34,871 bases of DNA, taken from a virus. Taxonomy: Duplodnaviria; Heunggongvirae; Uroviricota; Caudoviricetes. Where the stretch lies: IMG/VR virus record IMGVR_UViG_2541047758_000018. One strand, written 5' to 3'. The position numbers and the translations under genes were made by a program. This document shows, piece after piece, positions 4,597 to 34,871 of this stretch. The stretch's first letter is position 1, and each line of letters starts with the position of its first letter. Under the pieces are notes generated by a model. It ran no database searches, had not been told where the DNA came from, and saw only the letters and a list, made by a program, of their open reading frames with translations.

Positions 4597-4599
4597 CGC

Positions 4600-4730: not shown

Positions 4731-4746
4731 ACAAGGAGGCTGCCAC

Positions 4747-5599: not shown

Positions 5600-5817
5600 C
5601 CAACATCCAGCTCATTGAAGCGCAATGTCGCATCGAACAGGTTCAGACTGTTTTAGGGTTCTGGCTTGAAGGGGCCAGCCCAAGCAACAGAGACAAGTTA
5701 ATGATTGGCGCGGTTATGTCACTGCTCAATGGCGTACCAGAAGCTATTCAGGAAGCAGACGAATTGTTGGGCAAATATGAGTTACAGAATCATTCAGGCG
5801 AGGCGAAACATGAATAA
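5596..5817 (+). CDS. Hypothetical small protein (73 aa)
   Basis: ATGA start/stop overlap with the upstream ORF. Confidence 0.65.
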   Translation: MTNIQLIEAQCRIEQVQTVLGFWLEGASPSNRDKLMIGAVMSLLNGVPEAIQEADELLGKYELQNHSGEAKHE

Positions 5818-6412: not shown

Positions 6413-6422
6413 GGATGGAGCC

Positions 6423-11767: not shown

Positions 11768-13086
11768 TGGCGACATGGCAACTTGGCGGGCTGCCTAGCA
11801 TGGCACCGCAAAATGATAATGCTCCTCGTTCTTCCGTTCCTCAGCCTGTGCAGTATCAGCAGCAGCCAAACGTAGGTTTAATGGCGCTACAGGGGCTAAG
11901 AGGCGTTGCTGAGATTAATCAGCAGGCGCAAATTTCCCAGCAGTTAAAAGAATATCAGGCACGGTTGGGTAGTGCGGTAGCTAATAATGATCGTGTTGGC
12001 GTGCAGAAGTTAATGGCCCAGTATCCCCAGTTTATGGCTGATTCTCAAAAACAGATGGGATTCATTGATGCTGAGCAAAATCGACAGACCGCTGACGCTG
12101 CCATGAATCTGCGTCTTGCGTCACAAACTGGAGATCCACTGACCATGCAGAAGGCCATTCAGCAGGCAAATCCAGTATTACAGCGATTTGGTCTTCCTGC
12201 TGAAGAGGTTTATCAGTCTTGGCAGAATGACCCACAGGAATTCAACAGAATCACTGACCTCATCCACCTCCATGCTGATCCAAATAGTTACTTTAGTGTT
12301 CAAGAGAAGCAGCAAGGGCAGAGCATTGCACAGCAGAACGCAGATACATCCGCATATAATGCTCAGGTTAATGCGGAACAGGGTAATCGACGTCTCGATA
12401 TGGAGCAGTTCAAAGTCCTATCCGATAACCAACTACGCACGAGAGAAATGGTTCTGAAAGCACGACTTGGACGTGCTCAAAATGACATCGAGAGAGACAA
12501 GCTCAATGCTGAACTGAGCAAGGTACAGCAGGCGAAAGTGGAGAAGATGAACGATAAAATTAATACTGTTGCAGGTAACATCGACTCCTTGAACTCTGCG
12601 CTTGAAGTGGGTCATGAACTGGCGGGAATTGTAGGGAAACATCCTTCGGCCGTTACCCGCTCGCAGAACTATAACCCCCTGACGCTGGGGTTTGGATTCC
12701 TTCCTGATGTAGCAGAAGACACACGAAGCCTACGCGCCAAAGCTGATGAATACAACCTAAAGGTTATTCTGCCTAGCCTCAAAGGGACTTTTGGCTCTAA
12801 CCCAACCGAAGGGGAAAGGGCTGCCCTTATGCAATCTCAAAATGGCATTAAGTCAGCAACCAGCAATGAGGCATTTTTGCGAGAGTTGAATAAAGCGCAG
12901 GACGTAATTATTCGAATGCAGAAACGACAGATTGCCGGGCTCGGTATTCCTGTAACCAAATCTAAGGACGAAGAAACTGATACCAAAATGCTGTTGCAGG
13001 ATCCTTCACTAGTTAAGGATTATGTGACCGCACATGGCTATCTGCCGGAAAGTTACTATCAGGCAAAACTTAAGGGATGGCAATGA
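11767..13086 (+). CDS. Gln-rich internal virion (ejection, P22 gp20-like position) protein
   Basis: 439 aa with 1-nt start/stop overlap. It is Q/N-rich and looks coiled-coil. It is the middle gene of the three-gene ejection set. Confidence 0.5.
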   Translation: MATWQLGGLPSMAPQNDNAPRSSVPQPVQYQQQPNVGLMALQGLRGVAEINQQAQISQQLKEYQARLGSAVANNDRVGVQKLMAQYPQFMADSQKQMGFIDAEQNRQTADAAMNLRLASQTGDPLTMQKAIQQANPVLQRFGLPAEEVYQSWQNDPQEFNRITDLIHLHADPNSYFSVQEKQQGQSIAQQNADTSAYNAQVNAEQGNRRLDMEQFKVLSDNQLRTREMVLKARLGRAQNDIERDKLNAELSKVQQAKVEKMNDKINTVAGNIDSLNSALEVGHELAGIVGKHPSAVTRSQNYNPLTLGFGFLPDVAEDTRSLRAKADEYNLKVILPSLKGTFGSNPTEGERAALMQSQNGIKSATSNEAFLRELNKAQDVIIRMQKRQIAGLGIPVTKSKDEETDTKMLLQDPSLVKDYVTAHGYLPESYYQAKLKGWQ

Positions 13087-15414
13087 TGGCACAACTGACA
13101 GAAAAACAGAAAGCCTATTCCCGTCATCTCGATGAAAAATATGGTTTCCCATCAGGGACGATGGAAACATTAGTTGGCAATGAATCTAGTGGTAACGGAA
13201 GTGCCGAGTCACCGAAAGGAGCTAGAGGATTTGCTCAACTGATGCCCTCAGTAATGAGTGATGCTGGTTATCGTGGAACAGATCCGCGCTCACTGCCATT
13301 TGAAAAGCAAATGGATATCGCAGCAAACCATCTCAATAAAGGAATGAAGCGATTTGGTGATATAGGTATGGCATTGGCTGGGTATAATTCTGGCTATGCT
13401 CGTATTAATGCCGTCAGAAACGGTAAATCTACACTGCCAGATGAAACGGCTAATTACGTAAGTAAATTTGCAGATGCTGGAATAATCCCTGATGACAGTG
13501 AAATCTTGCAGTTTGCACAAACCAGTCAACATCGCAATCTTCAGCAGCCTGACTACTCAGAGCTTGATAAAGAAATCTCTCAGGTGGGAGATATTTCTGC
13601 ATGGGAAGCAAAACGTCAGCAATTTAAGAACATAGAAGCAGGACTACCAACAGCCAGTTCATGGGAGCAGAAAAGAGCTCAGTTTCTCGCCGATGAAAAT
13701 GCCGGGGAACCGCAGCAGCAAGTAGCCAAGTCTAACCTTAATCCTGAGATGGAATATCTTTCGCCAGGACTGAAAGCTGCGCCAGAGCAGATGGCCAGAG
13801 GGATTGCTAATATACCGTTTGATGTAATGGACGCAGGCGTGGGGGTAGTCAATGCGGCGCAATCAGCCGGAGCATGGGCAGCTCAGAAGCTTGGTGTGGG
13901 TGATGGCACATACACGCCCATATCACCTGTCTTTCGCCCAGTAGACCAACCTACAGATCCATACGCGCAGGCTGGTGAGCAGCTAGCACCTTACCTTATT
14001 ACAGGATTAGGTGCAGGAAAGGCAGCTACCGCAGCTTCTTCAGTTGCCAACGCTCCACGTGCTGAACGTGCGGCCACAAAGGTGGCTAGTATGTTGGCAG
14101 AAAACCTGCCAGGTACATTGGTGAACGCCCAAAAGAACGGGCAGATCAGCCCAGAAGACCTAGCAAAAGAGACAGGTATTGGCCTAGCAGGATCGCTAGG
14201 AGCACGCGCTTTAATAAAGAGCGGACAGACAGCCAGTGACGTAATGCGAGATGTATTGCGGAGTAATACAAATCAATCAGGCCATGTGTTAGGGGCAGCA
14301 AATACTCTGGAAACCGCCAATGATGTATCGAAAGCAGCGCGTTCTGCCGTAGGCCGAGAGCATATCGCATCGCAGGCATCAAACGTCAGAGATGATGTCG
14401 CTAAGGCGGCGAAAATCACTGGTATTAATATCAACACCCTGACGCCTGGAATGCGCTCAGGTAGTCGTGGAATTGCCCAAGCAGAAGGTGTTCTGGCATC
14501 AACTCCTGGGAATGTTCAGGATGCTCACCTTACGGCCTTCAATGAAATATCCTCAAAGTTGAATAAGCAGTTGTCTGATTTCGGTGCTGAGTCTGGAAGC
14601 GCATCAGAAAAAAGCGCAGCAATTAAAGAGCGCATCATCGCGAGCCTCAGTGATATGAAAACAGCAGAGAATATGGCATGGGCAGAACTGCGAAGCACGA
14701 TGCCACGCGAAAGGATGAAAATGAGTAATGGGATGGCTGTCGTCCAAGCAGAAAAAGCAGCCAATGTTCCACTCAGCCCGGAGATGAAACAGTTTCAGGC
14801 TGCCAACAACCAAGGTGGCGGCATAACCTTCGACGGGATGAAGGCATGGCGTGCTAAGTTTGCTGATGCTGAACAAGCAAACACCCGGGCAGGTAAGGCC
14901 AATGCCGCCCGGATTGCCGGAGAAATGCGCAGAGCTATCACTGATGACATGCGCATCATGGCTGAAAAAGGAAACTTCCTCACAGAATGGCAGAAAGCTA
15001 ACGATCTCTCTAAAAGTTACATTATCGCCAAACAAAATGCCGAATCTGTTTTTGGTCGAGATCTCGCATCAGACGCTATGGTAAGAAAAGGTGCCGATAC
15101 GCTTAAGGCATCCGCAAACACTGGAACGGGAGCTTTTCACCGTCTTATCTCCGCGCTGCCGGAAGCAGAACGCCAACCTGCAATAGCATCTATTCTTCAG
15201 CATGCTGTGGCGCAGGGAGAGAAGGGAGGAATCGGTGAAGAGTCAGGTATCCAGTATTTTGCCAAGCTCATGACCCAGCAGAATGTAAACGCCATCAGTC
15301 GTCATGCGCCAGATCTCGGTAGAATGATGAAAGAGTTCGGTGTACTCGCTAAAGCCAGTACCAGACCGCAGCGATACGTAGAGCGCACGGGAAGAACAAC
15401 TGAGGCTCTCAAAA
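13077..15414 (+). pseudogene. SLT-domain internal virion/ejection protein, 3'-truncated by IS911
   Basis: N-terminal lytic transglycosylase motif: NESSGN...GARGFAQLMP...AGYNSGYARI. The native reading frame runs straight into the IS911 inverted repeat at 15415. The last 52 codons of track ORF 13077-15569 are IS-encoded. Confidence 0.75.
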
Positions 15415-15444
15415 TGAAGTGGTCAACAAAAACTGGCCACCGAG

Positions 15445-16592
<1,148 letters not shown>

Positions 16593-22074: not shown

Positions 22075-22509
22075 ATGAGTAAGAAGAAAATTTCTTTTGA
22101 AAATGAAGAGTTCATTACTTACCGGGCATTACTTCTGAGTATTGACTTTGTTAAAAAACTGGTTATAGAAATGTCTGATGAAGATTTAAATAAGGTTAAG
22201 GAAAACTTTGACATAGCTATTCAGCAACGTAATGAGCGAAAGGAAAATATGAAAGCTATCAAATCACTCATGGATGAACATGGTATATCTCTGGAAGATT
22301 TTTATTGTGAATTTGGCAAAAAATCACAGGCAGGCAGAAAAAGTGTGTCAGGAAGGCATAAATACGAGTATGACGATAACGGTAAAAGAATGTACTGGAA
22401 TGGACAAGGACGTCGGCCTAAGGCCATAGCAGAGGCTATAAAAGCCGGAGGTTCTCTTGATGATTTTCTTATATCTCAGGAAGTATCATCTGGTCCTGAT
22501 TATGAATAA
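22075..22509 (+). CDS. H-NS family nucleoid-associated protein (horizontally acquired paralogue)
   Basis: The C-terminus KYEYDDNGKRMYWNGQGRRPKAIAEAIKAGGSLDDFLI matches H-NS [28 protein letters not shown]...SLDDFLI. The N-terminus looks coiled-coil. Confidence 0.88.
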   Translation: MSKKKISFENEEFITYRALLLSIDFVKKLVIEMSDEDLNKVKENFDIAIQQRNERKENMKAIKSLMDEHGISLEDFYCEFGKKSQAGRKSVSGRHKYEYDDNGKRMYWNGQGRRPKAIAEAIKAGGSLDDFLISQEVSSGPDYE

Positions 22510-22925: not shown

Positions 22926-23498
22926 CTACATATAGATAAATTCATATTTCACGATATACGACCCAATTTTATTAACACGAGCTGTTACCCATACACCTGT
23001 CATCCCCTGTTTATGGTGACTGCGCGGGAACTCTTTATTTGTACAAAGTTGTATCCATCTGGAAGTGTTTTGATCTTTCAACCAGAGTCCCGCTTCACAA
23101 TGTCCATACTTTCCTCTTGATGGTCCCGGAAAAACAACATCATATTCAGATTCATAGCTAATAACCTTATCCGGAAAAAGATAAACACAGACATCGTAAC
23201 AGTTCAGACTCAGTATAAATCCAAGACAAAATCCCCCCGTGAATGCATTTAATAAATACTTTAATGTTCTGTTAAAGGTGCGGATATAAAATGCATAAAT
23301 AAAAGAAAGAGAACCGGTGGTTATACCGGTGCAAAAATATGTTGTCCATTCAGGTACCGTATTTTGTAAAACAGTATAATGAGATATGGCGGATGCCCAC
23401 AACATATACCAGCACAAACCACCTGCAATAAGATATGTTATTGCTGTGGAAAACCATTTCCTGTATTTATTTTCAGGGTGATTGTTTTTGCCCATCAA
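22926..23498 (-). CDS. Membrane protein (about 4 TM helices plus a C-terminal soluble domain), unknown function
   Basis: Four hydrophobic segments: ITYLIAGGLCWYMLWASAI, YFCTGITTGSLSFIYAFYI, LLNAFTGGFCLGFILSL and a weaker fourth. It lies 97 bp downstream of the dGTPase-like gene on the same strand. Confidence 0.7.
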   Translation of the reverse strand: MMGKNNHPENKYRKWFSTAITYLIAGGLCWYMLWASAISHYTVLQNTVPEWTTYFCTGITTGSLSFIYAFYIRTFNRTLKYLLNAFTGGFCLGFILSLNCYDVCVYLFPDKVISYESEYDVVFPGPSRGKYGHCEAGLWLKDQNTSRWIQLCTNKEFPRSHHKQGMTGVWVTARVNKIGSYIVKYEFIYM

Positions 23499-23595
23499 CG
23501 CATTTCCAGAATATTTAAAAATAACCTGTCACCGAAACAGAATAAAGGCGCAATAACCATAACGGGAAAATATGCGCCTCTGGTAATCGACAGTG

Positions 23596-24849
23596 TTACT
23601 TCAGACAGTGAGTTTCCCATTCCTTGACTGCAAATGTATCCATCATACCTGAAATATAGTCAACCACTGCTCGTTTTTTGCTGATTTTAAATATATAGGA
23701 ATCTGGTTGGGGTAAGGTGAATTTAAGTTCAGGAGGCAGAAATTTATAATTCTCTCCTTCATTGTAAAAGTCATATAAATCCCTGATTATTTTATTTCCC
23801 CTGAACTCATAGGTGAGGATATTACGTTTTCGCATGATGACTTTAAAGAGAAGTTTTTTGAGCCCTTCGGATAACGCATTCAGTTTCCCGAATCCCAGTT
23901 CCTGAAAACCATTCAGGTTCGTTACTACAGAAATATCTGCAACGAGGCGATTGACAATATTTGAAGTTAACTCCTTGCGGAATATGATGGCAAATTCTTC
24001 TGAGGTTTTCAGTAAGTTAGCCTGAAAAGCGGTGTTTCTCGACTGAGTAACGATTTCCCTGAACTGTTCCCTCGCTCCCCGGAATTCGTCAGAAATCTGA
24101 AACTCATATTCAATATCTTCAATCGTGACCATGTTCCTGCTAAGGGCATCTTCCAGGTCATGCGCGGCATAGGCAATCTCATCCGCGAGATCCATTATCT
24201 GCGCATCAATCGTTTTCTCTCCGGGATTCAGATCGAGCTGATTTTCAGCAAGCAGGTTAATGTAAAAATAGTAATCATCATCATAAATGAACTTGCCGGC
24301 AGTAGCTGCAGCGCGGGGGATGGGATACTTAACAACCGAAAGTAAACTACGGTGAGTCAGATTTAATCCGTTGCAGTATGAAAATTTCTTCTCCAGTTTT
24401 CTCAGGATACGTAGCGCCTGTGCATTGCCTTCATAGCCGCCGATTTCTTCAGACAGTTCATTAAGCAGTTTTTCACCGGAATGACCGAAAGGAGGATTTC
24501 CGATGTCATGCGCCAGCGCTGCCAGTTCAACCACCACCGGGTTAACCAGTTTGAGGTCTGACGCGATACTTCGGGCGATCTGAGCAACCTCAAGACTGTG
24601 CGTTAATCTGTTTCTGTTGAATTTTTCAGGATCAATTTCAAAAAGTTGCATCTTTCCCTGCAGCCTGCGAAATGATGATGAATACAGAATACGCGCATAA
24701 TCCCGTTGATAATTATCCCGGCTTCTTGTTTCACCATCGGGGGACGGGTGCTCTCTGGTATCAGCAAGCGCACTGATAAGTTTTTGTTCCTGCTCTTGCG
24801 CAAATTCTTTTAATTCATTGCAGTACATATTTCTTCCTTTCTGGAGCAT
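23596..24849 (-). CDS. dGTPase-family HD-domain dNTP triphosphohydrolase
   Basis: RDYARILYSSSFRRLQGKMQLF, RLTHSLEVAQIARS, HDIGNPPFGHSGE and YEGNAQALRIL are the Dgt-family signature blocks. The ATG at 24828 (MYCNEL, preceded by AGGAAG) is a likely alternative start. Confidence 0.88.
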   Translation of the reverse strand: MLQKGRNMYCNELKEFAQEQEQKLISALADTREHPSPDGETRSRDNYQRDYARILYSSSFRRLQGKMQLFEIDPEKFNRNRLTHSLEVAQIARSIASDLKLVNPVVVELAALAHDIGNPPFGHSGEKLLNELSEEIGGYEGNAQALRILRKLEKKFSYCNGLNLTHRSLLSVVKYPIPRAAATAGKFIYDDDYYFYINLLAENQLDLNPGEKTIDAQIMDLADEIAYAAHDLEDALSRNMVTIEDIEYEFQISDEFRGAREQFREIVTQSRNTAFQANLLKTSEEFAIIFRKELTSNIVNRLVADISVVTNLNGFQELGFGKLNALSEGLKKLLFKVIMRKRNILTYEFRGNKIIRDLYDFYNEGENYKFLPPELKFTLPQPDSYIFKISKKRAVVDYISGMMDTFAVKEWETHCLK

Positions 24850-24978
24850 GTTACCAAATCAGAATACCGGATGAACAAAACTGGTGGCTACATCCTGTAG
24901 GGATTATGTATTAGTAAGCTCTGGCCATTAGTGCCATTTCAGGTTATGTGATCCTACTCACGTAATATGGACACAGGC

Positions 24979-25845
24979 CTAAGTGAGGTTCTGGTTTTCA
25001 AATTGTTCCGGACTGAGGCCGCCACACCAACTGTGCCGCCGCCACCGATTGTAATCACATTCGATATAATTAAACACCGTTGCCCGCATTATTTCCCGGC
25101 TGATAAAGTGTTCTCCATGGATACATTCCACTTTCAGCGAATGAAAGAAGCTTTCCACGCAGGCATTATCGTAGCAGCAACCTTTTGCGCTCATACTTCC
25201 ACGCAGATTATGCCGCTTCAGTTGCGCCTGATAATCTGCTGAACAGTACTGGCCTCCACGGTCCGTGTGAACGATAACGTTCCGGGGCCTCTTACGCCGC
25301 CACAGCGCCATCTGCAGGGCATCGCAGGCCAGTTGCGCCGTCATGCGTGGCGACATTGACCAGCCAATAACGGCACGTGACCACAGGTCAATGACCACTG
25401 CCAGATACAGCCAGCCTTCATCTGTACGTAAGTACGTGATGTCTCCTGCCCACTTCTGGTTCGGGCCACTGGCGTAAAAATCCTGCTCCAACAGATTTTC
25501 TGACACAGGCAGGCCGTGTGCGCGGTAGCTGACCGGGCTGAACTTCCGGGAGGCCTTTGCCCTCAGTCCCTGACGGCGCAGGCTTGCCGCCACGGTTTTT
25601 ACGTTAAAGGGGTAACCCTGAGCACGCAGTTCATCCGTCAGGCGTGGGGCACCGTAACGCTGTTTTGACCGGGTAAAAGCCGCGAGGACAACGCTGTCGC
25701 AGTGTTGGCGGAACTGCTGACGCGTGCTTATCCTTGTCCGCCGCTGACACCACGTATACCAGCCGCTGCGGGCCACCCGGAGCACGCGGCACATTGCTTT
25801 GATGCTGAACTCAGCCTGATGTTTTTCAATAAAGACATACTTCAT
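24979..25845 (-). CDS. insF: IS3 OrfB (DDE transposase)
   Basis: [10 protein letters not shown]...[11 protein letters not shown]...[12 protein letters not shown]. The start overlaps the orfA stop. Confidence 0.9.
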
Positions 25846-26141
25846 TTCAGGCGCTTCGCGAAGTATGTCGCGGCCTTTTGGAGGATAGCCAGCTCTTCAT
25901 CCCGTTCTGCCAGCTGGCGTTTGAGACGTGCAATCTCGGTAGACATCTCCAGTTCACGTTCAGAAGACGTCTGCTGATTTTGCTGTTTACTGCGCCAGTT
26001 GTAGAGTTGTGATTCATACAGGCTGAGTTCACGGGCTGCGGCAGTAACACCGATGCGTTCAGCAAGCTTCAGGGCTTCACTGCGAAATTCAGGCGAATGC
26101 TGTTTACGGGGTTTTTTACTGGTTGATACTGTTTTTGTCAT
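25842..26141 (-). CDS. insE: IS3 OrfA
   Basis: [50 protein letters not shown]..., 99 aa. This is an internal start of track ORF 25842-26150. Confidence 0.9.
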
Positions 26142-26220
26142 GTGAGTCACCTCTGACTGAGAGTTTACTCACTTAGCCGCGTGTCCACTATTGCTGGGTA
26201 AGATCACCCTGTGAACCATG

Positions 26221-26297
26221 TTGATATTGATACTATATTGACTATATGCCATACAGGTGGTAATGATTAGTTACTACCATACAGGAAAAGGTAGAAA
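26221..26297 (+). promoter_or_regulatory. Candidate promoter/operator of the TS-like operon
   Basis: Tandem TTGATA TTGATA (26221-26232) with TATATG at 26243-26248, 16 bp from the first hexamer. Two CCATACAGG direct repeats (26249-26257 and 26277-26285) bracket a near-palindrome, GGTGGTAAT gat TAGTTACTACC. RBS AAAAGGTAG. Confidence 0.3.
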
Positions 26298-27278
26298 ATG
26301 ACTCTTTTGGTAACGGCTGAGTGTGTTGACGATCTGATAAACGATGTTCATCAAGCTATCCTAGCGGATGGACTCAGTAACGATCCTACAAAAGGATCAA
26401 CTCTAGAGATTCTTGGTGCCTATCTTGTCCTTACCGACCCCCGCCGAAGAATAAGTAGAACAGAATCCCGAGGAAAACTAATTAGTTGCTTAGGTGAATT
26501 TCTGTGGTATCTCTCAGCTCAGAACGATCTTGAGTTTATAAAACACTTCATACCACGTTACGCTGAATCCGCTGAGTCAGATGGGAAAATACATGGTGGT
26601 TACGGGCCACGGTTGTTTAATATGCGTGGTTTATATAATCAGCTAAAAAATGTCATCAACCTTTTGCAGGAGAAAAAACCTACCAGACGTGCAGTAATAC
26701 AGCTTTTCGATGCCTCAGACTTGGTGCCCTCAAAAACTGAACAGCGAGAATACGTAGATATTCCTTGTACAATATCTATGCAGTTTATTGTCAGATGTGA
26801 AGAGCTGCATCTATTTGTTTGTATGCGTTCTAACGATGCCTTTATGGGGCTGCCTCATGATGTATTTGCGTTCACGATGCTACAGGAATTAGTTGCCCGC
26901 TTGATAGGATGCGAATTGGGTCACTATCATCACTTTGTATCCAGCCTACATCTCTATAAAAATGATTTAGAAAAAGTGAAGGCTCTTCAGAAAGAGGGGT
27001 TCATGAGCACCCTACCAGTCATGGGATCGATGCCTGAAATGCATTCCTTAGATGATATCTTACCCCTGCTTGAGGCAGAAAAAGCTCTTCGAGAGAATAA
27101 GGAATTTGATATTGACACTACTTCCTTGAATGACTACTGGAAGGATTTATTGCGTATATTAAAAATCCACTTTTTGTTACGTTCACATACACCCAACCAC
27201 AAAGGACTAGCCTTCCAAGAGTTGGCTGCAATGAAAAATCAGGAATATCGGTTTATTTTTGAAGGAAGACTACAATGA
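26298..27278 (+). CDS. Thymidylate-synthase-fold pyrimidine C5-transferase (predicted cytosine-nucleotide methylase/hydroxymethylase)
   Basis: Aligns by eye to ThyA at GEFLWYL (E58), GGYGPR (Y94), TRR (R126/R127), IPCTISMQF (C146, here C157), CMRSND (R166/S167/D169) and SLHLY (H207/Y209). ThyA N177 (GLPFNIAS) is Asp188 here (GLPHDVFA). Confidence 0.8.
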   Translation: MTLLVTAECVDDLINDVHQAILADGLSNDPTKGSTLEILGAYLVLTDPRRRISRTESRGKLISCLGEFLWYLSAQNDLEFIKHFIPRYAESAESDGKIHGGYGPRLFNMRGLYNQLKNVINLLQEKKPTRRAVIQLFDASDLVPSKTEQREYVDIPCTISMQFIVRCEELHLFVCMRSNDAFMGLPHDVFAFTMLQELVARLIGCELGHYHHFVSSLHLYKNDLEKVKALQKEGFMSTLPVMGSMPEMHSLDDILPLLEAEKALRENKEFDIDTTSLNDYWKDLLRILKIHFLLRSHTPNHKGLAFQELAAMKNQEYRFIFEGRLQ

Positions 27279-28219
27279 AAAGACATAATCAAATCAGTCA
27301 GCTGGTTAGTAATTTGCAAAATTTTAGCCGCAATGAACACAACCTAAATGGTCTAAGTTCTCCTGCCTGCTTTGATGTTTTAGCCTGTCAGATTATCGAC
27401 AGTATACGTCGTATACGCTATGTGGAAACTCTTGCATTACGGACCGATTATATGACTCCGTTACGAAAAGAGCCGAATTCTGATGTTTTTGATCCTCTCC
27501 GCGCTGCCTGCCTTTATCTTCGTGACAACAATTACGATGAAGCCTGCTGGCTGGTTTTCCTTGCCACACATTTCGGCAAGAGTAACAAAACCGGCTGGAT
27601 TTTGTGTCGAGATATATACAGTGGACTCGGTACACAAACGTGGACATGGGATACGATAACTGATGACTTTGCTGCTTTTGAACAATGGTTCGCCAGCGTC
27701 TCTGATGAGTTGACAGCTAACAGTAGCCTAAGACAATATGGTAACCATCGGAAATATGAAACGAAGAAATATCACTCTCGTCGTTCAATACCTGCGGTTT
27801 TTCGCTCTTACATCGGATTCATTGGTGCTACACACAGTCATGAGGCTAGGTTTGCAGAGGCCAAGAGCTTTTCATCTTCACCAGAATCTTTATTCGAACT
27901 ATTGTATTCAGGGCTAAATGCCGTGATCTCATTTGGACGAACCGCAAAATTTGATTACCTAACTATGCTCAAGAAAACGGGACTTCTGGATGTAGAGCCG
28001 GGTCATGCTTTTCTGAATGGAGCAACCGGGCCCCTTCAAGGAAGCCGGCTACTTTTCAGCAATAGCCGGACTGCTGGTGACACAATAGACGTATTGAATG
28101 AAAAACTAGCTGACCTTGCGGCAATTATTCCTGCACCCTACTTGAGAATGCAGGTTATTGAAGATGCGTTGTGCAACTGGCAGAAATCACCTGACCGTTA
28201 TGTCTATTTCGGCGGCTGA
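27275..28219 (+). CDS. Hypothetical protein (314 aa), partner of the TS-like enzyme
   Basis: The ATG overlaps the TS-like stop (ATGA). I recognise no motif with certainty. Stretches such as EACWLVFLATHFGKSNKTGW and FGRTAKFDYLTMLKKTGLL remind me loosely of helical DNA-base-modification/glycosylase-like families. This is unverified. Confidence 0.75.
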   Translation: MKRHNQISQLVSNLQNFSRNEHNLNGLSSPACFDVLACQIIDSIRRIRYVETLALRTDYMTPLRKEPNSDVFDPLRAACLYLRDNNYDEACWLVFLATHFGKSNKTGWILCRDIYSGLGTQTWTWDTITDDFAAFEQWFASVSDELTANSSLRQYGNHRKYETKKYHSRRSIPAVFRSYIGFIGATHSHEARFAEAKSFSSSPESLFELLYSGLNAVISFGRTAKFDYLTMLKKTGLLDVEPGHAFLNGATGPLQGSRLLFSNSRTAGDTIDVLNEKLADLAAIIPAPYLRMQVIEDALCNWQKSPDRYVYFGG

Positions 28220-28221
28220 TA

Positions 28222-29304
28222 TCAGACGATATCTTCTTTACGGAATCTCACTTTAAACCGATTAAGGTGAGAAAAAGGTATATTACCTTCATGCTGCAAA
28301 TATCCCAGTACGATCCCTTTGGATACCCCCATTTTCCTAGCTAACCGGATGATCTCTTTCCAATGCCGGACACCATAGCGACTAAGTTGCTGCCGGTATT
28401 CTTCTGGGATAAGAACATCAACGGCAAATTTATCTGCTTCCTTTTCCTCTTCCGACGAAAGACTATCTTTACCTTCTACGCGAACTCGGACAGCTTCATG
28501 CAAGATGAGATGCCCAATCTCATGAAACAGCGTAAACCAAAAATGGTCATCGGTCAGATAACGGAAACTCATGACTAGGGTTGCGCGATCTGGTGTAAAA
28601 AAGCAGGTAGCACCACTTGCCCGACATCCCTTTGGCGTTGGCAACACAACGAGAGAAACTCCAGCAGTGGCGAGAAGGTCGCGAATGTAAGGGATAAAAA
28701 TCCTCATGTCGGGTTCATTTGTAGCTTTGCGCAGTTCTGGCAACAATGCTATCAGCACCTCTTTATCCCATACAGCACAGTTTTGGTTTGAGGTAAGTTG
28801 TGCAGCCCTAGTCAGCCACACCAAATCGGCCATAGGCTCGGTTGCCAGATTAAGAGATTTACGAAAAGCGACCAAAGGAGCATCTGACTGAATTTTATAA
28901 AAAAAATCATTGACGGAATTTATTCCGAAAAACGATAGGCAGTGCTGGAATTTACTTTCCCGAGTTGTAGTTTTGGGGATCCAACCAAACTCCATCATAT
29001 CACGTACAGGCAATGATTCGAGCCAATCATTATTCACTTTCTCGAGGTATCCAATTTGCTGGCGATAAGCGACTTCGCGCTTGATCCAGAAGTCTGTCGA
29101 TACGTTGAATAACTCCTCAAGCTTACAAGCCAGAGACTCATTGAGTCGGATTTTTCCTTCAAGAAGTTGCTGACCCCGGATAAGAGACAATCCAATCCTC
29201 TTACTCAGTTCTTCACCAGAAAGCCCATGTTCATCCATTAGATCTATAATTGTATCACCGGGTGGAGATACCCAGTCAGGCTGGAAGTCCTGCGTAACTA
29301 TCAT
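28222..29304 (-). CDS. HigA-like XRE HTH fused to an ImmA/IrrE-type zinc metallopeptidase
   Basis: The N-terminus PGDTIIDLMDEHGLSGEELSKRIGLSLIRGQQLLEGKIRLNESLACKLEELFNVSTDFWIKRE fits the HigA/VapI HTH pattern. The C-terminus carries HEXXH in TLFHEIGHLILHE, typical of ImmA/IrrE (DUF955). Confidence 0.82.
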   Translation of the reverse strand: MIVTQDFQPDWVSPPGDTIIDLMDEHGLSGEELSKRIGLSLIRGQQLLEGKIRLNESLACKLEELFNVSTDFWIKREVAYRQQIGYLEKVNNDWLESLPVRDMMEFGWIPKTTTRESKFQHCLSFFGINSVNDFFYKIQSDAPLVAFRKSLNLATEPMADLVWLTRAAQLTSNQNCAVWDKEVLIALLPELRKATNEPDMRIFIPYIRDLLATAGVSLVVLPTPKGCRASGATCFFTPDRATLVMSFRYLTDDHFWFTLFHEIGHLILHEAVRVRVEGKDSLSSEEEKEADKFAVDVLIPEEYRQQLSRYGVRHWKEIIRLARKMGVSKGIVLGYLQHEGNIPFSHLNRFKVRFRKEDIV

Positions 29305-29627
29305 TTCACGTCACCTATGAACACTAACCGTATCCGGCTAACTCGGGACCAGTTAATTGTATTATCTTGATTTTTGGGCTGAACTGTATTCCCACAGACA
29401 AATCCCATTTTTACATCACCGAGAATGGTAATTGTAATACACTCTTCCCCATCCTCAAAGCAGACCTCCGGCGAACCTACGGGCAACAGTAATATGTTGT
29501 CTGTCACGGAAAGATCGGAAAGTCGCGAGCGTAGTCTTGATGCCACTTTGTCACCAAAGATCTCATTTGCCTCATGCATACTCTCGCAAATAGTCCTTAA
29601 CTTCTTGCTTTGAAAGGTAATGAACAA
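29301..29627 (-). CDS. Small protein, weak HigB/RelE-like toxin candidate
   Basis: 4-nt overlap with the downstream HTH-peptidase gene. The N-terminus MFITFQSKKLRTICE...VASRLRSRLSDL resembles HigB 'killer' proteins, but the C-terminal catalytic-type residues are not evident. Confidence 0.4.
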   Translation of the reverse strand: MFITFQSKKLRTICESMHEANEIFGDKVASRLRSRLSDLSVTDNILLLPVGSPEVCFEDGEECITITILGDVKMGFVCGNTVQPKNQDNTINWSRVSRIRLVFIGDVK

Positions 29628-29770
29628 AATTATCCACTTTTATTTTTCTTGGTTGCTACGTTTATAGCAAACTCAACGCTCATTCACAAAATGAGATGTA
29701 GCGAATTAATGGACTCTGCACATATTAAATGTTAATGATGGACTTAAAATCACGGATTCGTAAGGGAAAC

Positions 29771-30034
29771 ATGAAAGGTAAACATCAAGACACTAAAGCC
29801 CTGTCTGACGTGCTAGCGGAAATGCAACGGCAGGATGCCAAATGGGGGGCAGACCGTAATCAAGATCCTTTTATCTGGGGAGCGATTCTCGGAGAAGAGG
29901 TGGGAGAATTTCATCAGGCTGTCCTCCATGATCGTTTTGGTGGTAAAGCAGCCGGTACCAGTAGGGAGGAAGCAGTACAAATTGCTGCTGTTGCACTGCA
30001 AATCATCGAATATTATGATCGCGTAATAGATTGA
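29771..30034 (+). CDS. MazG-like all-alpha nucleoside triphosphate pyrophosphohydrolase (87 aa)
   Basis: Internal ATG of track ORF 29729-30034 with an AAGGGA RBS. LGEEVGEFHQAV and EEAVQIAAVALQIIE resemble the two acidic metal-binding helices of small MazG-type enzymes. Confidence 0.6.
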   Translation: MKGKHQDTKALSDVLAEMQRQDAKWGADRNQDPFIWGAILGEEVGEFHQAVLHDRFGGKAAGTSREEAVQIAAVALQIIEYYDRVID

Positions 30035-30308
30035 TAAATTAGAATTAATCAACTAAGAGTCTTTTACACGCGAAGATGAACTCTGGCAGCCATCTACCTT
30101 CGTGGGCCTGTAGAACACATCTAATTGCAATACTCCCAGTTAATCACTAACCAGCCTCTCCAGTAAGGCTGGTCGATTAGGTTTAATTAAACAGATATAA
30201 CAAGCAATTCACTTGGTATTACGCGGTTCACACAGACTTCTTTAGTTGTGTCATATCCTATAACTTTCAGAGGCTTATTTACGGTATTATCACGAACGGT
30301 GCAAAAGT

Positions 30309-31174
30309 GGCTCTTCCGCAACCTAGGTGGAGATTTTCATGCCAGTGGACTCATTACCCTCTGCCTAAGTAGTTCAAATCCGGCTCGACCATACATCAGA
30401 CGTTTCAGCATCTTCAGGCGATTTACATGACCTTCGACAACACCGTTACTCCAGCGGCTGCTGGTTGCCTCACATATAGCCGCGGCATCAGCTTCCATCC
30501 CCGCAGCCACGCGCCGAAGTTCTGCTGAACCGTTTTCGTGGACTCGAGTGAACCAACTGCTTAGATTTGATTTATTTGGGGTTTTCAGAATACGGTAGAA
30601 CTCAAGTACTAGTTGCTGCGCTATTTTCAGCGCCGGTTCTTTTTCACACATCAGACTAATAAATCGGGAAGCATAATTTTCTTCACCCCTGATTATTATC
30701 CAGGGCATCAACCAGCGGCTTACCCGGGACACTGAAGGAAGTCTGGCGGCAGTAGTAACTGGTGGGTTCCAGCCTTTACGCCATTTGGCAACAGCATCCC
30801 TGACGATGGTTTCACTGCCTGTAACCCCCGGCCACCATTTCCCGCCATATCCAGTCGCTGGTGTGCTGAATTGGTCATGTATGAAGGAAGATATCAATGG
30901 TGGTATCTCCCTTTCAAAAGGAAGTGAAAAGCTTGATGCCTGCTGCCAGGCAATCAATATTACGTGCTTTTAACGACTATCCTAAATGGTGGTAGCTATG
31001 CAGAGCTCCCGGTCCTAGCGCTGGGAGCTTATCGCTTATCTTTACCGTAAGCGTAAACGGACCGCCGTATGTAGCCATTAAACCAGTATTGGTAACGTAG
31101 ATACCCACCTTTTCAAAAGGGAAGTGGATAAAAGATAGCGAAAATGCGAAGAGTTGATTAATGCATTGAAACAA
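30309..31174 (-). mobile_element. ISL3-family insertion sequence remnant
   Basis: The terminal sequence GGCTCTTCCGCAACCTAGGTGGAGATTTT starts at 30309, 28 bp beyond the transposase stop. The transposase frame is broken, with fragments at 30337-30957 and possibly 30977-31174. No matching second inverted repeat was found, so the far boundary is uncertain. Confidence 0.5.
30337..30957 (-). pseudogene. ISL3-family transposase, C-terminal fragment
   Basis: SSRWSNGVVEGHVNRLKMLKRLMYGRAGFELLRQRVM is the characteristic ISL3 transposase C-terminus. The N-terminal half is missing or frameshifted. Confidence 0.7.
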
Positions 31175-31457
31175 AATTCATTAATGATGAACTTGGAGAA
31201 AAGCTCCATCGTTTTATTGGCTCAAAAAACATATCCCATAGATGATCAGCCATACCTTCATTGGTTAGCAAGGTATCCTGTGAGTAGCCATGGCTGAAGA
31301 TGCCCATTGATGGGCGAAAACCAAGGATCTGACCGTTAGAGCAGTTATGTCGTTAAACACATCACCACCATATGCCATCCGGCTCACTTCGTCGGCCAAA
31401 TTAGTGTGATATTCTTTCCAGAAATGCTGTTGTATCCACGACATAAGGCGATGATTG

Positions 31458-34400
31458 ATGGAGCAGTCTCTCAATTTTGAAATGTTGCGCAGCCAGTGGC
31501 CGGAACTGGCTGAACTCGCGTGTATGGCGGAACGCTATGTTCACTCCGATCCGGAAAGTTGTCTGGTCAAGCTGCGCAACTACACTGAATTGATGGTGCG
31601 CTGGTTGTATCGTCAGGAGCGGTTGCCGGAAGGTATTAAGGCTAATCTTTACGATTTAATGAATGCTGATGTCTTTACCAGCATGATGCCGGAAGCCATC
31701 ATCATGAAAATGGATGCGCTGCGTATCCATGGCAACCGTGCCGCGCACGGCGGACGTATCAAAGCTAAAGATACTTACTGGCTGCTCAAAGAAGCGTATT
31801 TGTTGGGAATTTGGCTGTATGTTCGCTACGCCCACGGTAATGTTGATGACTGCCCCAAATTTACACTCCCTCCATTAACACAATCTTCAGGTCGTGCAGA
31901 TGAAAAACGTCTGGAAGATGCAATCAGGGCTCAGGATGAAAGCCGTGAGCGCGAACTGGCGCTGCAACGCGCACTACAGCAAGAACAGGAAAAGGCCGAA
32001 CACCTCACTCAACGCCTGAATGAAGCCAGAGCGCGTAACCAGCATGTTGCCGATATTCTCTCTATTGATGAAGCGGAAACCCGCCGTCGCCTGATTGACT
32101 CTCGCCTGCTTGCTGCTGACTGGAATGTAGGCGAAGGCCTTAAAAATACCGATCAGGTTACGCAGGAACATCCCGTTAAAGAACAACCTACCGCGACCGG
32201 AGACGGTTATGCGGACTATGTCTTGTGGGATGAGGCACACAAACCGCTGGCGGTGGTGGAAGCAAAAAAAACCAGCGTCAATGCCGAGCAAGGACGAATT
32301 CAGGCCCGGCTGTATGCAGACTGGCTGGAAAAAGAATACGGCCAGCGTCCGATCATCTTCTACACCAACGGCTATGATATCTGGCTGTGGGATGACCATA
32401 AAACTCATGGTTATCCCCCGCGTCGGGTGTTTGGCTTCTACAGCAAGGAAAGCCTGCAATATCTTATTCAACAGCGTGAAACCCGTCTTCCGCTGAACAG
32501 TGTGCCGCACGTAAAAGATAACGAAGGTAAGGCCGTTGCCGGACGTTTGTACCAGCTTGAAACCATTGCCCGTGTCAGCGAGCGGTTTACCAACAAATAC
32601 CGGCAATCGCTAATTGTTCAGGCTACGGGTACAGGCAAAACCCGCGTGGCAATAGCGCTAAGCAAACTGATGATTGATGCCCGCTGGGTAAAACGCGTCC
32701 TGTTTCTTTGCGACCGCAAGGAACTACGTAAACAGGCGGCGAATGCCTTTAATCAATTCACCAATGAGCCGCTGTATGTGGTCGGGAAATCGAAAAAAGC
32801 AGACAGGCAGAATGCTAGGATCTACATCGCCACCTATCCTGGTATGATGAAAATCATGGACCATTTCGATGTTGGTTATTTCGATTTGATCATCGCCGAT
32901 GAATCCCATCGCTCTATCTACAACGTTTACGGCGATCTGTTTAAGTATTTTGATGCCCTCCAGATTGGCCTGACGGCCACGCCGATTGACATGGTGAGTA
33001 AAACCACTTTCGGCCTGTTTGGTTGTGAAGGACGTATTCCTACCGCCAACTACAGCCTGGAAGATGCCATCGCCGATAACAATCTGGTTCCCTATGAGGT
33101 TGTCACGCACACCACAGAATTCCTGCGCGAAGGCATCAAACGGGAGAAATTAAGCGACGCACAAATCCGCGAGCTGGAAGAACAAGGCATAGATCCCAAT
33201 ACGCTGGAGTTTGATGGCAAGGCGCTGGATGAGGCGATCTACAACAAAGACACCAACCGCTATATCCTGCGTAACCTGATGGAAAATGGCCTGAAAGATC
33301 GGGACGGCCAGTTGCCAGGTAAAACCATCATTTTCGCCCGTAACCACAAACACGCGCTGCTGTTGAATGAATTATTCGACGATATGTACCCGCAGTTTGC
33401 CGGGCGCTTCTGCCAGGTCATCGACAATTACGATCCCCGCGCCGAGCAACTGATTGATGATTTTAAAGGGCTGGATGAAAGCACCAACAAAGAGCTGACC
33501 ATCGCTATCTCCGTTGACATGCTCGATACCGGTATTGATGTCCCGGAAATTGTGAATCTGGTCTTTGCCAAACCGGTCAAATCAAAAGTGAAGTTCTGGC
33601 AGATGATTGGCCGTGGTACGCGCCTCTGTCCGGGGTTGTACGGTTACGACGATAACGGCAAACCTCTGGATAAACAGAAATTCCGCATTTTCGATCACTG
33701 GGGCAATTTTGAGTATCACGAACTGCATACCGAAGAGGCCGAAGTCACAGCGACAAAATCGCTTGCACAAAAACGCTTCGAAGCGTGGGTTATGCTGGGG
33801 GCCGCTGCGCAACGTAAATTCGACAAACAGGCGGTGGATTTAGTTGCTCACCAGCTACGCGAGCAAATCAATGCACTGGATGAAAAGTCGATTGCCGTCC
33901 AGGAAAAGTGGCATCAAAAAGCGCAGTACAGCGATGAAAAAGTGCTGCGCCAGCTTTCCCCGAAAACACAGCAGGATTTGCTATCTGTCCTGGCCCCGCT
34001 GATGCAGTGGCTGGACGTGCGCGGGCAAAGCGACGCTATGCGCTTTGATATGGATATTCTGGCGGCGCAAACTGCCCGTTATACCAACCCGGAAGAGCTG
34101 GATGTGCTCTGGCCGGTCATCGTCGAAAAAGTGGAGCGCCTGCCGCCGCATTTGGCGCAAGTCCAACAGCAAGGACCGCGGATCAATCAGCTTCGTGATT
34201 TAGGCTGGTGGAAGCAGGCCAGCCTGGAAGAGCTGGAAGATATCCGCATTCATCTGCGCGGCATCATGCACCTGATGGAAAAAGACGCGACGCCGAAATT
34301 TGGTTCGATACAGGTGGATATTACCGAAGATGCGAACCTGATTCAGACGGAAAACCGTAAAACCAACATCCGCTCGATTGACTTCAAACTCTATCGCCAG

Positions 34401-34871
34401 CAGGTGCAGGGAGCGCTGGAGCCGCTGTTCCAGCAAAATCCGGTGCTGAAGAAAATCCGCAACGGCGAGCCTGTGACGCAAAGCGAGCTGGATGAACTGG
34501 CTAAACTGGTGCTGATCCAGAACCCTAACGTTGATATCCGGGCACTGAAAGAGTTCTACCCGCAGGCGACCGCCAGCCTGGATAAACTATTGCGTACCAT
34601 CATCGGGATGGACAGCGACGCGGTGGAAGTGCGCTTTGCTCAGTTCGCCGCTGATAACAGCCTGACCAGCCAGCAATTGCGCTTCCTGTCATTGCTGAAA
34701 AACCACATTCGCGATTACGGCACCATTGAAATGCGGCAGCTCTTTGAACAGCCTTTTACGCATATCCACAACGAAGGCGTTACCGGTGTGTTCCCTGATA
34801 TAGAACAGATCGCCCGCCTACAAAAGATAGTCGAAGAGCTGGGTGTTGTGACCGACGCAGCAACGGTATAA
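31458..34871 (+). CDS. hsdR: Type I restriction endonuclease R subunit
   Basis: PD-(D/E)xK nuclease YADYVLWDE...AVVEAKK. Helicase motifs are QATGTGKT, IIADESHR, LTATP and QMIGRGTR. The C-terminal region is of the EcoEI_R_C kind, and there is an N-terminal helical domain of about 130 aa (DUF4145-like). ATG at 31458; the track starts at TTG 31455. The stop is the last base of the window. Confidence 0.92.
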   Translation: MEQSLNFEMLRSQWPELAELACMAERYVHSDPESCLVKLRNYTELMVRWLYRQERLPEGIKANLYDLMNADVFTSMMPEAIIMKMDALRIHGNRAAHGGRIKAKDTYWLLKEAYLLGIWLYVRYAHGNVDDCPKFTLPPLTQSSGRADEKRLEDAIRAQDESRERELALQRALQQEQEKAEHLTQRLNEARARNQHVADILSIDEAETRRRLIDSRLLAADWNVGEGLKNTDQVTQEHPVKEQPTATGDGYADYVLWDEAHKPLAVVEAKKTSVNAEQGRIQARLYADWLEKEYGQRPIIFYTNGYDIWLWDDHKTHGYPPRRVFGFYSKESLQYLIQQRETRLPLNSVPHVKDNEGKAVAGRLYQLETIARVSERFTNKYRQSLIVQATGTGKTRVAIALSKLMIDARWVKRVLFLCDRKELRKQAANAFNQFTNEPLYVVGKSKKADRQNARIYIATYPGMMKIMDHFDVGYFDLIIADESHRSIYNVYGDLFKYFDALQIGLTATPIDMVSKTTFGLFGCEGRIPTANYSLEDAIADNNLVPYEVVTHTTEFLREGIKREKLSDAQIRELEEQGIDPNTLEFDGKALDEAIYNKDTNRYILRNLMENGLKDRDGQLPGKTIIFARNHKHALLLNELFDDMYPQFAGRFCQVIDNYDPRAEQLIDDFKGLDESTNKELTIAISVDMLDTGIDVPEIVNLVFAKPVKSKVKFWQMIGRGTRLCPGLYGYDDNGKPLDKQKFRIFDHWGNFEYHELHTEEAEVTATKSLAQKRFEAWVMLGAAAQRKFDKQAVDLVAHQLREQINALDEKSIAVQEKWHQKAQYSDEKVLRQLSPKTQQDLLSVLAPLMQWLDVRGQSDAMRFDMDILAAQTARYTNPEELDVLWPVIVEKVERLPPHLAQVQQQGPRINQLRDLGWWKQASLEELEDIRIHLRGIMHLMEKDATPKFGSIQVDITEDANLIQTENRKTNIRSIDFKLYRQQVQGALEPLFQQNPVLKKIRNGEPVTQSELDELAKLVLIQNPNVDIRALKEFYPQATASLDKLLRTIIGMDSDAVEVRFAQFAADNSLTSQQLRFLSLLKNHIRDYGTIEMRQLFEQPFTHIHNEGVTGVFPDIEQIARLQKIVEELGVVTDAATV

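Follow-up and report, generated by a model that had tools for sequence, protein, structure and literature searches.

Introduction

Depletion of nucleotides by dGTPases or dCTP deaminases is an established type of phage defence, and in phage T4 the dCTPase gp56, a nucleoside triphosphate (NTP) pyrophosphatase, supplies the deoxycytidine monophosphate (dCMP) hydroxymethylase gp42. Here we analyse a stretch of 34,871 nucleotides (IMG/VR record IMGVR_UViG_2541047758_000018), referred to as the window, in which a cassette of four genes is located between a dGTPase module and the type I restriction gene hsdR. The cassette encodes an enzyme with the thymidylate synthase (TS) fold, a member of aGPT-Pplase clade 3 (aGPT-Pplase3) homologous to amino-acid:DNA transferases (AADT), a helix-turn-helix (HTH) protein fused to an M78 metallopeptidase, and a small protein with the HigB fold. 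The original prediction for this region had instead proposed a functionally linked cluster of four nucleotide-metabolism enzymes, interrupted by a toxin-antitoxin (TA)/regulator pair. We find that the cassette is one self-contained four-gene unit, joined in Enterobacterales by a fifth, MazG-like gene, and on a slight balance of probability we read it as a self-contained candidate phage-defence system, in which a TA-like switch would control a pair of nucleotide-diverting enzymes as effector.

Several described systems offer points of comparison. PD-λ-2 is a validated abortive-infection system composed of a HigB-like protein A and an HTH-peptidase protein B, where B is toxic, A neutralises B, and a third component is required for defence (Vassallo et al. 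2022, PMC9519451). The cassette similarly has a HigB-fold gene upstream of, and overlapping with, a fusion of a HigA-type HTH and an ImmA/IrrE peptidase, and its M78 protein fits the PADLOC model PD-Lambda-2_B over nearly the full length (E = 3.3e-30, residues 15-341 against model positions 60-378 of 402). The small protein however resembles A at the fold level only, and the P4-antitoxin-like C is absent, a convergent operon of TS-like and aGPT-Pplase3 genes being present instead. DS-4 (DeWeirdt et al. 2026, PMC13092281) is a validated E. coli defence that, like the cassette, reuses phage-type pyrimidine-hypermodification enzymes including a TS-fold protein. The DS-4 TS is nevertheless 29% identical to that of the cassette and has Asn, the uracil type, at the specificity position, and its partners are dNMP-kinase-like, 5-hydroxymethyldeoxyuridine (5-hmdU) DNA kinase, TIR and NMAD proteins, without an aGPT-Pplase or a HigB/HTH-M78 pair.

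Thymidine hypermodification in the phages M6, ViI and PaMx11 employs a dUMP hydroxymethylase, a 5-hmdU DNA kinase and an aGPT-Pplase/AADT enzyme of clade 2 (PMC8989533, PMC11472151). The cassette differs in being cellular, in a TS predicted to be specific for cytosine rather than uracil, in the absence of the DNA kinase, which provides the phosphorylated substrate, and of pyridoxal-phosphate, radical-SAM and FAD tailoring enzymes, and in its linkage to a TA-like pair; apart from a family of 266-aa proteins described below, no additional gene was seen to recur in or beside the cassette. MilA/MilB and BcmA/BcmB represent a CMP hydroxymethylase and an N-glycosidase in nucleoside-antibiotic pathways (PMC5175136, PMC4081090). 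With these the cassette shares a two-step operon and a TS-fold enzyme of predicted cytosine specificity via the same Asp, but it has Ser/Arg in place of Ala/Lys, and the second enzyme displays a helix-hairpin-helix (HhH)/AADT fold rather than that of a MilB-type glycosidase. As regards T4, the MazG-like and TS-like proteins of Enterobacterales would together recreate a route from dCTP to hydroxymethyl-dCMP (hm-dCMP). The cassette is unlike the phage pathway in being host-encoded and in having neither an hm-dNMP kinase nor a glucosyltransferase, and the MazG-like gene, the assignment of which is unconfirmed, is missing from most cassettes. We found no description in the literature of the four-gene unit, of its cytosine/deoxy specificity or of its link to a PD-λ-2-like pair, and neither the TS-like gene nor aGPT-Pplase3 is covered by a model in PADLOC v2.

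Results and Discussion

The cassette recurs as a unit across bacteria

The cassette was surveyed in a one-genome-per-species collection, in which 388 places matched, and the best 80 loci were analysed with gene presence scored by phmmer, using the window proteins as queries. These loci derive from Alpha-, Beta- and Gammaproteobacteria, Myxococcota, Acidobacteriota, Planctomycetes, Bacteroidota, Chloroflexota, Gemmatimonadota, Actinobacteria and Spirochaetota, and from one Saccharibacteria metagenome-assembled genome. The HTH-M78 gene was recovered next to aGPT-Pplase3 in 79 of the 80 and the TS-like gene adjoining aGPT-Pplase3 in 76, the small HigB-fold gene was present in 74, and all four were found together in 70, with the misses falling mostly at contig ends. 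A dGTPase was detected in none. Rather than being an interloper among the enzymes, as had been proposed, the TA/regulator pair hence contributes, in its M78 gene, the most constant partner of TS and aGPT-Pplase3.

The arrangement of the genes is equally well preserved. In the window, the convergent aGPT-Pplase3 and HTH-M78 genes have stop codons 2 nt apart (28219-28222); across loci these stops overlap by up to 20 nt or are separated by at most 20 nt in 72 of 78 cases (median 0), and an overlap between the small gene's stop and the M78 start is seen in 67 of 73. No intrinsic terminator fits between the convergent window genes. With the convergent ends this close, no space remains for terminators, and antisense read-through may thus represent a conserved regulatory feature.

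The trio of TS, aGPT-Pplase3 and convergent M78 genes is found in Vibrio cholerae, Bradyrhizobium and Salmonella in otherwise unrelated contexts, and the cassette is present on ten plasmids. Its distribution is patchy and horizontally transferred, with an occurrence in 4.4% of E. coli and 95% nucleotide identity to Kluyvera. The genes that flank the cassette vary widely, and even the most frequent families, which are integrases, recombinases and a phage GPA replication protein, reach no more than 3 of 111 nearest neighbours; with no recurrent family, these neighbours neither strongly support nor refute an enrichment in defence islands. A general link to type I restriction-modification was rejected (4 of 80 loci within 10 kb), the association being confined to E. 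coli, Kluyvera and Yokenella together with ET151-type islands.

Two further proteins were observed in or beside the cassette. In about 28% of the cassettes a gene of some 266 aa is placed between the TS-like and aGPT-Pplase3 genes (L024:9174-9974, L067:7751-8551 and about 20 others), with the motifs GLNPSNREF, ACHLDLIPYAT and GFNHNIQSSFG. The GLNPS and NHN motifs raised the possibility of a glycosylase similar to uracil-DNA glycosylase or Mug, which was rejected following hhalign against E. coli Mug (probability 0.2). No Pfam or NCBIfam match was obtained for this protein, and what the PDB profiles returned was weak and uninformative (best E = 0.003, to a retron reverse transcriptase). The second, a protein of about 114 aa with the motif WCHLVADS...ELH.FA, occurs beside the cassette in six loci (L052:5172-5516, L064, L071, L076, L088 and L089).

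Residues of the TS-fold enzyme point to dCMP

The nearest solved relative of the TS-fold enzyme is the CMP hydroxymethylase MilA (E = 1.6e-41, residues 26-304, including the C-terminal extension), as compared to 1.4e-18 for the nearest true TS (6auj) and 1e-9 to 1e-14 for most true TS. Conservation was assessed in alignments of 72 TS-like, 75 M78 and 82 aGPT-Pplase3 sequences. The catalytic residues C157, E67, H218 and Y220 align with C155, E68, H216 and Y218 of MilA and are kept in 71-72 of the 72 TS-like proteins, with the nucleophile Cys157 present in all.

The determinants of substrate choice have been delineated in MilA: Asp186 is a mark of cytosine, with Asn marking uracil, and Ala176 together with Lys133 mark ribonucleotides, with Ser and Arg marking the 2'-deoxy form; the A176S/K133R double mutant switched its preference to dCMP, and these residues mark cytosine and 2'-deoxy specificity in MilA, T4 CH and TS (PMC5175136). 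In the cassette enzymes, the position of E. coli TS N177 and MilA D186 is occupied by Asp188 (72/72), and those of MilA A176 and K133 by Ser178 (72/72) and Arg130 (71/72), respectively. The earlier proposal of an enzyme acting on cytosine nucleotides is therefore supported and can be narrowed, the enzyme being predicted to be dCMP-specific. A hydroxymethyl rather than a methyl product is suggested by the closeness to MilA. The very TS protein of the window, WP_000174035.1, is furthermore a "predicted novel defense gene" with log-odds of 7.63 in Table S10 of DefensePredictor (Science 2026), in which aGPT-Pplase and MazG are among the predicted, unvalidated defence domains (PMC13092281).

The similarity to MilA also brings in an explanation unrelated to defence, as in the mildiomycin pathway the next enzyme cleaves the hydroxymethylated nucleotide. 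The cassette could then be an addiction (TA) module carrying either a small-molecule pathway, MilA/MilB-like and releasing a metabolite derived from 5-hydroxymethylcytosine, or a pathway for an epigenetic mark on host DNA, with the HigB/HigA-M78 pair stabilising or regulating it. The TA-like architecture fits plain addiction, and many cassettes are located beyond recognisable defence islands. Against this, 71-72 of 72 cassettes have specificity residues of the deoxy type (Ser/Arg) where MilA and BcmA have the ribo type (Ala/Lys), genes for tailoring, export or resistance do not recur beside the cassette, aGPT-Pplase3 has a Cys-based transferase motif unlike the MilB family, and the DefensePredictor log-odds (7.6) point to defence; overall, we find an addiction module of this kind rather unlikely.

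The clade 3 partner and the question of a DNA substrate

The second enzyme, held to be an unknown partner in the original prediction, belongs to a named family, with matches to aGPT-Pplase3 and ADDT (Table 1). A 4-nt overlap links its start with the TS stop. The motif E-D-x2-C-N-W-Q-K is present in all 82 sequences, with E296, D297 and C300 to K304 invariant, and the invariant motif of clade 3 reads Q-V-[LI]-E-D-A-L-C-N-W-Q-K. In clade 2 enzymes, an essential Cys with a neighbouring Glu is employed, the Cys attacking C6 of a flipped C5-(phospho)hydroxymethyl pyrimidine in DNA (PMC8989533, PMC11472151); E296, D297 and C300 are candidate counterparts of gp46 C247 or of the Cys/Glu of M6 gp51. 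The fold is all-helical, HhH glycosylase-like and of the base-flipping type, common to a solved AADT, and the nearest solved relative is gp46, which binds double-stranded DNA and flips the target base.

These features make action at the level of DNA a serious rival, albeit one that we judge unlikely. Here, the AADT-like enzyme would flip C5-hydroxymethyl pyrimidines in DNA, either that of invading T-even-like phages or DNA containing the TS product, and convert them to adducts, either bulky or cross-linked, at which replication or packaging would be blocked, amounting to a modification-dependent or hypermodification-poisoning defence. Congruent with such a mechanism are, in addition to the base-flipping fold and the DNA binding of the gp46 relative, that the characterised clade 2 enzymes work on DNA only and that the validated DS-4 likewise reuses DNA-hypermodification enzymes. 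TS-fold enzymes however use mononucleotides, the cassette has neither a kinase for the formation of hm-dCTP nor a 5-hydroxymethyl DNA kinase that would activate the leaving group, and the translational coupling of TS-like and aGPT-Pplase3 genes suggests consecutive steps on one small substrate.

About 3900 homologues of aGPT-Pplase3 were identified in a large protein collection, chiefly from bacterial genomes and metagenomes. In contrast, tblastn returned no match in 50,697 phage genomes, only one of the PHROGs, a family of unknown function, matched, and this marginally (E = 0.009), and the structural relatives among viruses are no more than distant. Clade 3, unlike clades 1 and 2, is not a phage family, and a phage origin of the cassette was rejected in view of the missing phage matches and the distant structural relatives. 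The domain families are nonetheless best known from phages, and the block is situated between insertion sequence (IS) elements in a mobile island, as might be expected for a decaying, functionless remnant of a prophage DNA-hypermodification cluster. That all catalytic residues are kept without exception among phyla whose proteins share about 40% identity, that every open reading frame (ORF) is intact, that tblastn found nothing in the 50,697 phage genomes and that the viral structural relatives are distant render such a remnant extremely improbable.

A HigB-fold/HTH-M78 pair

The HTH-M78 protein also matches the PADLOC model capP (1.8e-10), at a lower level than PD-Lambda-2_B, and the HExxH of the M78 domain is intact in 75 of 75 sequences. 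The 108-aa protein encoded upstream was modelled using AlphaFold2 (pLDDT 92.5), and the best Foldseek matches of the model are P. vulgaris HigB, YoeB and RelE (probability 1.0, TM 0.63-0.72); many of its homologues are labelled HigB or killer protein in IMG. An assignment by sequence, as PD-λ-2 A or as Pfam HigB, was rejected, Pfam giving one weak PF05015 match among 31 members, and the HigB-likeness is supported by the fold alone.

Regulatory DNA was inspected on both sides. A candidate promoter upstream of the TS/aGPT-Pplase3 operon is followed by an imperfect palindrome, GTAAY-N5-RTTAC. In an alignment of seven Enterobacterales cassettes, ATTGACT is invariant and a GGTGGTAATGATT core is conserved. 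A candidate operator palindrome in the divergent intergenic region between the HigB-fold and MazG-like genes is kept in six of seven, at about 79% overall nucleotide identity. We also observed an exact 9-nt direct repeat, CCATACAGG, at window positions 26249-26285; upstream of the TS-like gene, its two copies, 28 nt apart, flank the putative -10 and the imperfect palindrome, and other Enterobacterales retain the repeat only in part. A shared operator was rejected, since this partly conserved repeat is absent from the TA-side intergenic region.

A proposed function in phage defence

From the unit structure, the conserved active sites, the folds and the specificity residues, which are established here, we go on to infer a role in defence, a trigger and a chemistry along the following lines. 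As in PD-λ-2, the HigB-fold/HTH-M78 pair would serve as a switch that responds to infection, and possibly as an effector that arrests growth. The TS-like enzyme would convert dCMP to 5-hydroxymethyl-dCMP, and the AADT-like aGPT-Pplase3 would process hm-dCMP to a further C5 adduct, so that the effector pair diverts deoxycytidylate to C5-substituted nucleotides unusable by host and phage alike. The dCMP could be released from host DNA or come from dCTP, which the MazG-like protein, where present, may hydrolyse to dCMP as T4 gp56 does for gp42. A mechanism at the level of the nucleotide pool, which we favour, agrees with the use of mononucleotides by TS enzymes, with the lack of a kinase and with the translational coupling of the two genes. 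The links to defence are the similarity of the M78 protein to PD-Lambda-2_B (3e-30), the flagging of the TS gene by DefensePredictor, the validation of DS-4, a different system that contains a TS, in the same study, and the patchy distribution with horizontal transfer.

A more far-reaching version can be formulated, which we put forward tentatively and regard as doubtful: a widespread bacterial immune system in which a host dCMP hydroxymethylase is paired with an AADT-like transferase directed at cytosine, where C5-adducted deoxycytidine, formed as a nucleotide or within DNA, would poison or starve phage replication, the HigB-fold/HTH-M78 switch would restrain the enzymes, and the overlapping convergent operons would provide antisense control.

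A number of observations weigh against the proposed defence function. The nearest neighbours of the cassette include a few defence genes and several housekeeping genes, with no dominance of defence, and DefensePredictor lists the cassette TS gene as a prediction only. Regarding the chemistry, the sequence does not distinguish methyl from hydroxymethyl transfer by the TS-like enzyme, the cassette contains no kinase to convert hm-dCMP to the triphosphate or to activate the hydroxymethyl group, unlike the phage pathways, and gp46 acts on DNA rather than on free nucleotides, which is awkward for a pure nucleotide-pool mechanism. Concerning the switch, none of 31 small-protein members matched PD-Lambda-2_A (PADLOC HMM, E<=1), and the cassette encodes no homologue of PD-λ-2 C and no third gene in the TA-like operon. 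The MazG-like gene, finally, is restricted to a single clade, and its family assignment has not been confirmed independently.

Two independent mobile units meet at an IS3 element

The genes listed in the original prediction were all recovered in place (Table 1), with two corrections: the TS partner is not unknown, and the MazG-like label lacks independent confirmation. The block is indeed AT-rich, with a GC content of 0.35-0.45 over most of its length as compared to about 0.51 in neighbouring core-like DNA.

Table 1. Features of the window in and around the cassette, with window coordinates.
Feature	Position	Strand	Remarks
Protein with three N-terminal hydrophobic segments, 190 aa	22926..23498	-	downstream of dGTPase; outside the cassette
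dGTPase-family dNTP triphosphohydrolase	23596..24828	-	410 aa from Met at 24828; ORF reaches 24849; module 1
IS3	24949..26206	-	1258 bp; orfA 25842-26150, orfB 24979-25845; rve + HTH_Tnp_1; module junction
Candidate sigma-70 promoter, TS/aGPT-Pplase3 operon	26238..26267	+	TTGACT-18-AATGAT, consensus scan
TS-fold enzyme, predicted dCMP C5-hydroxymethylase	26298..27278	+	cassette gene 1; Pfam Thymidylat_synt 5e-25
aGPT-Pplase clade 3/amino-acid:DNA-transferase homologue	27275..28219	+	cassette gene 2; PF18746 4.8e-90; PF18724 ADDT 9.1e-59
HigA-like HTH + M78 (ImmA/IrrE) metallopeptidase fusion	28222..29304	-	cassette gene 3; HTH_3 4.3e-5; Peptidase_M78 9.9e-11
HigB-fold protein, 108 aa	29301..29627	-	cassette gene 4; stop overlaps gene 3 start
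Candidate operator palindrome	29653..29670	.	TTGCTA-N6-TAGCAA, HigB-fold/MazG-like divergent intergenic region
MazG-like protein, 87 aa	29771..30034	+	NCBI (PGAP)/IMG name: MazG-like/NTP pyrophosphatase; accessory fifth gene
ISL3-family transposase remnant	30337..30957	-	C-terminal part only; PF01610 DDE_Tnp_ISL3 1.1e-10; right cassette boundary
Type I restriction R subunit hsdR	31455..34871	+	PADLOC REase_I 1.3e-273; HSDR_N, ResIII, EcoEI_R_C; extends beyond the window end

The dGTPase is a stand-alone, ordinary gene of the known nucleotide-depletion defence type, with a predicted activity in defence. It contains HD (PF01966, 1.2e-14) and HD_assoc (PF13286, 5.4e-15) domains and matches TIGR01353 above cutoff (2.1e-94). 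The 410-aa HD protein fits the PADLOC dGTPase model (E = 1.4e-109) but remains under the cutoff of NCBIfam NF041026 antiphage_dGTPase (284.7 bits against 400). The window copy is intact and free of gaps, with 408 of 410 residues identical to annotated WP_000271620.1. Strains 4FM and FORC 064 share 99.9% identity with the window, yet their copies of the gene are annotated as frameshifted (L001 21597-22828 and L092 25662-26893); a frameshift in the window was rejected, being restricted to other strains. For the neighbouring 190-aa protein, Pfam gave sub-threshold matches only, and PADLOC, NCBIfam and PHROG none; among the E. coli genomes in which the dGTPase persists, some have it replaced by other sequence (the query being covered at 405-2149 only). 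A paralogue of the H-NS/StpA family is encoded just upstream of the dGTPase module (22075-22509), in the most AT-rich stretch, and travels together with the dGTPase side of the island (L091 and L093).

IS3 separates this module from the cassette. Its right end lies 91 bp upstream of the TS-like start, and its left end is 120 bp from the dGTPase Met at 24828, or 100 bp from an alternative upstream ATG at 24849. The element has terminal inverted repeats of 40 nt, and its flanking triplets, atg and ccc, show no 3-bp target duplication; a simple insertion was rejected on these grounds. The right flank differs in L091 and L093. In the latter, E. coli 10205, the right end of IS3 is joined (L093 7525-7540) to window position 29840, within the MazG-like gene (window 26206/29840). 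This junction is an IS3-adjacent deletion of the whole cassette, with dGTPase and hsdR retained.

Among 5426 complete E. coli genomes, the cassette was found in 238, the dGTPase module in 344 and the hsdR allele in 460, and the whole block, at a coverage of at least 80%, in 186. The units also occur apart, as exemplified by L090, with a cassette and no dGTPase, and L091, with a dGTPase and no cassette. The cassette of E. coli ET151, 79% identical and including the MazG-like gene, directly follows a leuX-side integrase next to another type I system, and the dGTPase is absent. ECC-1470 retains the dGTPase and IS3, followed by IS1 and the fec operon. In Kluyvera and Yokenella, where the cassettes are 94-95% identical at the nucleotide level, homology begins exactly at the IS3 end, and for Kluyvera it ceases at window 30222-30228, about 190 bp past the MazG-like gene and just before the ISL3 remnant; the cassette there follows hsdRMS, abuts an integrase and is not accompanied by a dGTPase. 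The remnant itself corresponds to positions 259-368 of 370 in NF033550. The genes found upstream of this hsdR allele are WYL and GTPase genes in E. coli W, and ImmA/IrrE, "beta family" and sce7726 genes in F8111-1SC3. The island is found at different chromosomal sites, by cadC in 4FM and by setC in FORC 064.

The comparison of cargo upstream of this hsdR allele thus gave a divided answer: TS, aGPT-Pplase3, the TA-like pair and, in Enterobacterales, the MazG-like gene are one inherited block, and the dGTPase is a second, with no conserved link to the cassette. The two units are independent and mobile, located in a cargo slot of an integrative island with IS3 at the join. The idea of a hotspot holds insofar as the slot upstream of hsdR is a generic, variable cargo position in a mobile island, but it is not specific for nucleotide-pool modules. 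As the dGTPase and the cassette are two blocks, the concentration of nucleotide enzymes is that of two neighbouring units, which can arise by chance in such a slot.

It was also proposed that the four enzymes jointly attack the phage deoxynucleoside triphosphate (dNTP) supply, or protect the host, with the hotspot selecting for this theme. The dGTPase and a dCMP-directed enzyme, perhaps with an NTP pyrophosphatase, are indeed adjacent in the 186 genomes, and each could plausibly lower dNTP availability. The absence of the dGTPase from the 80 cassette loci elsewhere, the occurrence of each unit alone in E. coli, the IS3 join without target duplication and the IS3-adjacent deletion that can remove the cassette, as well as the unrelated cargo in the same slot of other strains, largely refute a joint attack, which we consider highly improbable. 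Protection of the host from its own dGTPase by genes of the block found no support.

The MazG-like gene is an accessory of the cassette in Enterobacterales. It was detected in 7 of the 80 loci, all of this order, inside a block that is 79-95% identical at the nucleotide level in Kluyvera, Yokenella, Citrobacter, Enterobacter, Raoultella and E. coli ET151. The call as MazG-like stands on the NCBI and IMG names and on an EExxE motif, present as EEVGE; a second motif reads EEAVQ, that is E-x-x-Q against the expected E-x-x-D. Independent confirmation failed, with Pfam (E<=10), the PDB profile and precomputed Pfam of 120 homologues all negative and hhalign against E. coli MazG giving a probability of 0.3, and the name is retained solely as that of the annotators.

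Further observations concern the remainder of the island. The genes hsdM, hsdS and an AAA ATPase gene follow hsdR beyond the window in L001 and L092, and in L001 the AAA ATPase and a hypothetical gene occupy 35733-38251, after hsdRMS. Residues 5-212 of hsdR (31455-32090) form a DUF4145 region at the N terminus, for which PADLOC additionally gives a match to its candidate PDC-M16A (1.5e-40). At the opposite end, window positions 1-9871 encode a tyrosine integrase (1-1260), an AntA-domain protein, an Ash-family protein and a DUF927/Toprim primase-helicase (7112-9871), with a PDC-S22-like C-terminal region in 3083-3916; this left end is the backbone of a P4-like satellite or integrative element. 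Three consecutive genes at 11090-15569 resemble those for the P22 ejection proteins gp7, gp20 (Inj_translocase) and gp16 (SLT domain). Further structural genes of phages were not seen in their vicinity, and an IS3-family transposase gene (15445-16263, minus strand) is next.

Implications

Annotations such as "thymidylate synthase" and "XRE family regulator" in islands of this type mask one single unit, and the adjacency of the dGTPase to the cassette is an IS-mediated accident. Enzyme families known as phage weapons, through pyrimidine hydroxymethylation and hypermodification that counter restriction, are here present in bacterial chromosomes and plasmids of many phyla, with hypermodification-type enzymes that are predicted to be aimed at deoxycytidylate and tied to a PD-λ-2-like TA switch. 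If the cassette defends against phages, aGPT-Pplase clade 3 would obtain its first function, and nucleotide-directed defence, to date represented by dGTPase, dCTP deaminase, viperins and DS-4, would gain a new chemistry in the form of a compact four-gene system that is easily tested in E. coli. Should the more far-reaching version, with a cytosine-directed transferase in a widespread immune system, hold true, the cassette would provide the first case of an AADT-family enzyme that acts on cytosine and is encoded outside viruses, and would represent a cellular hypermodification pathway without prior description.

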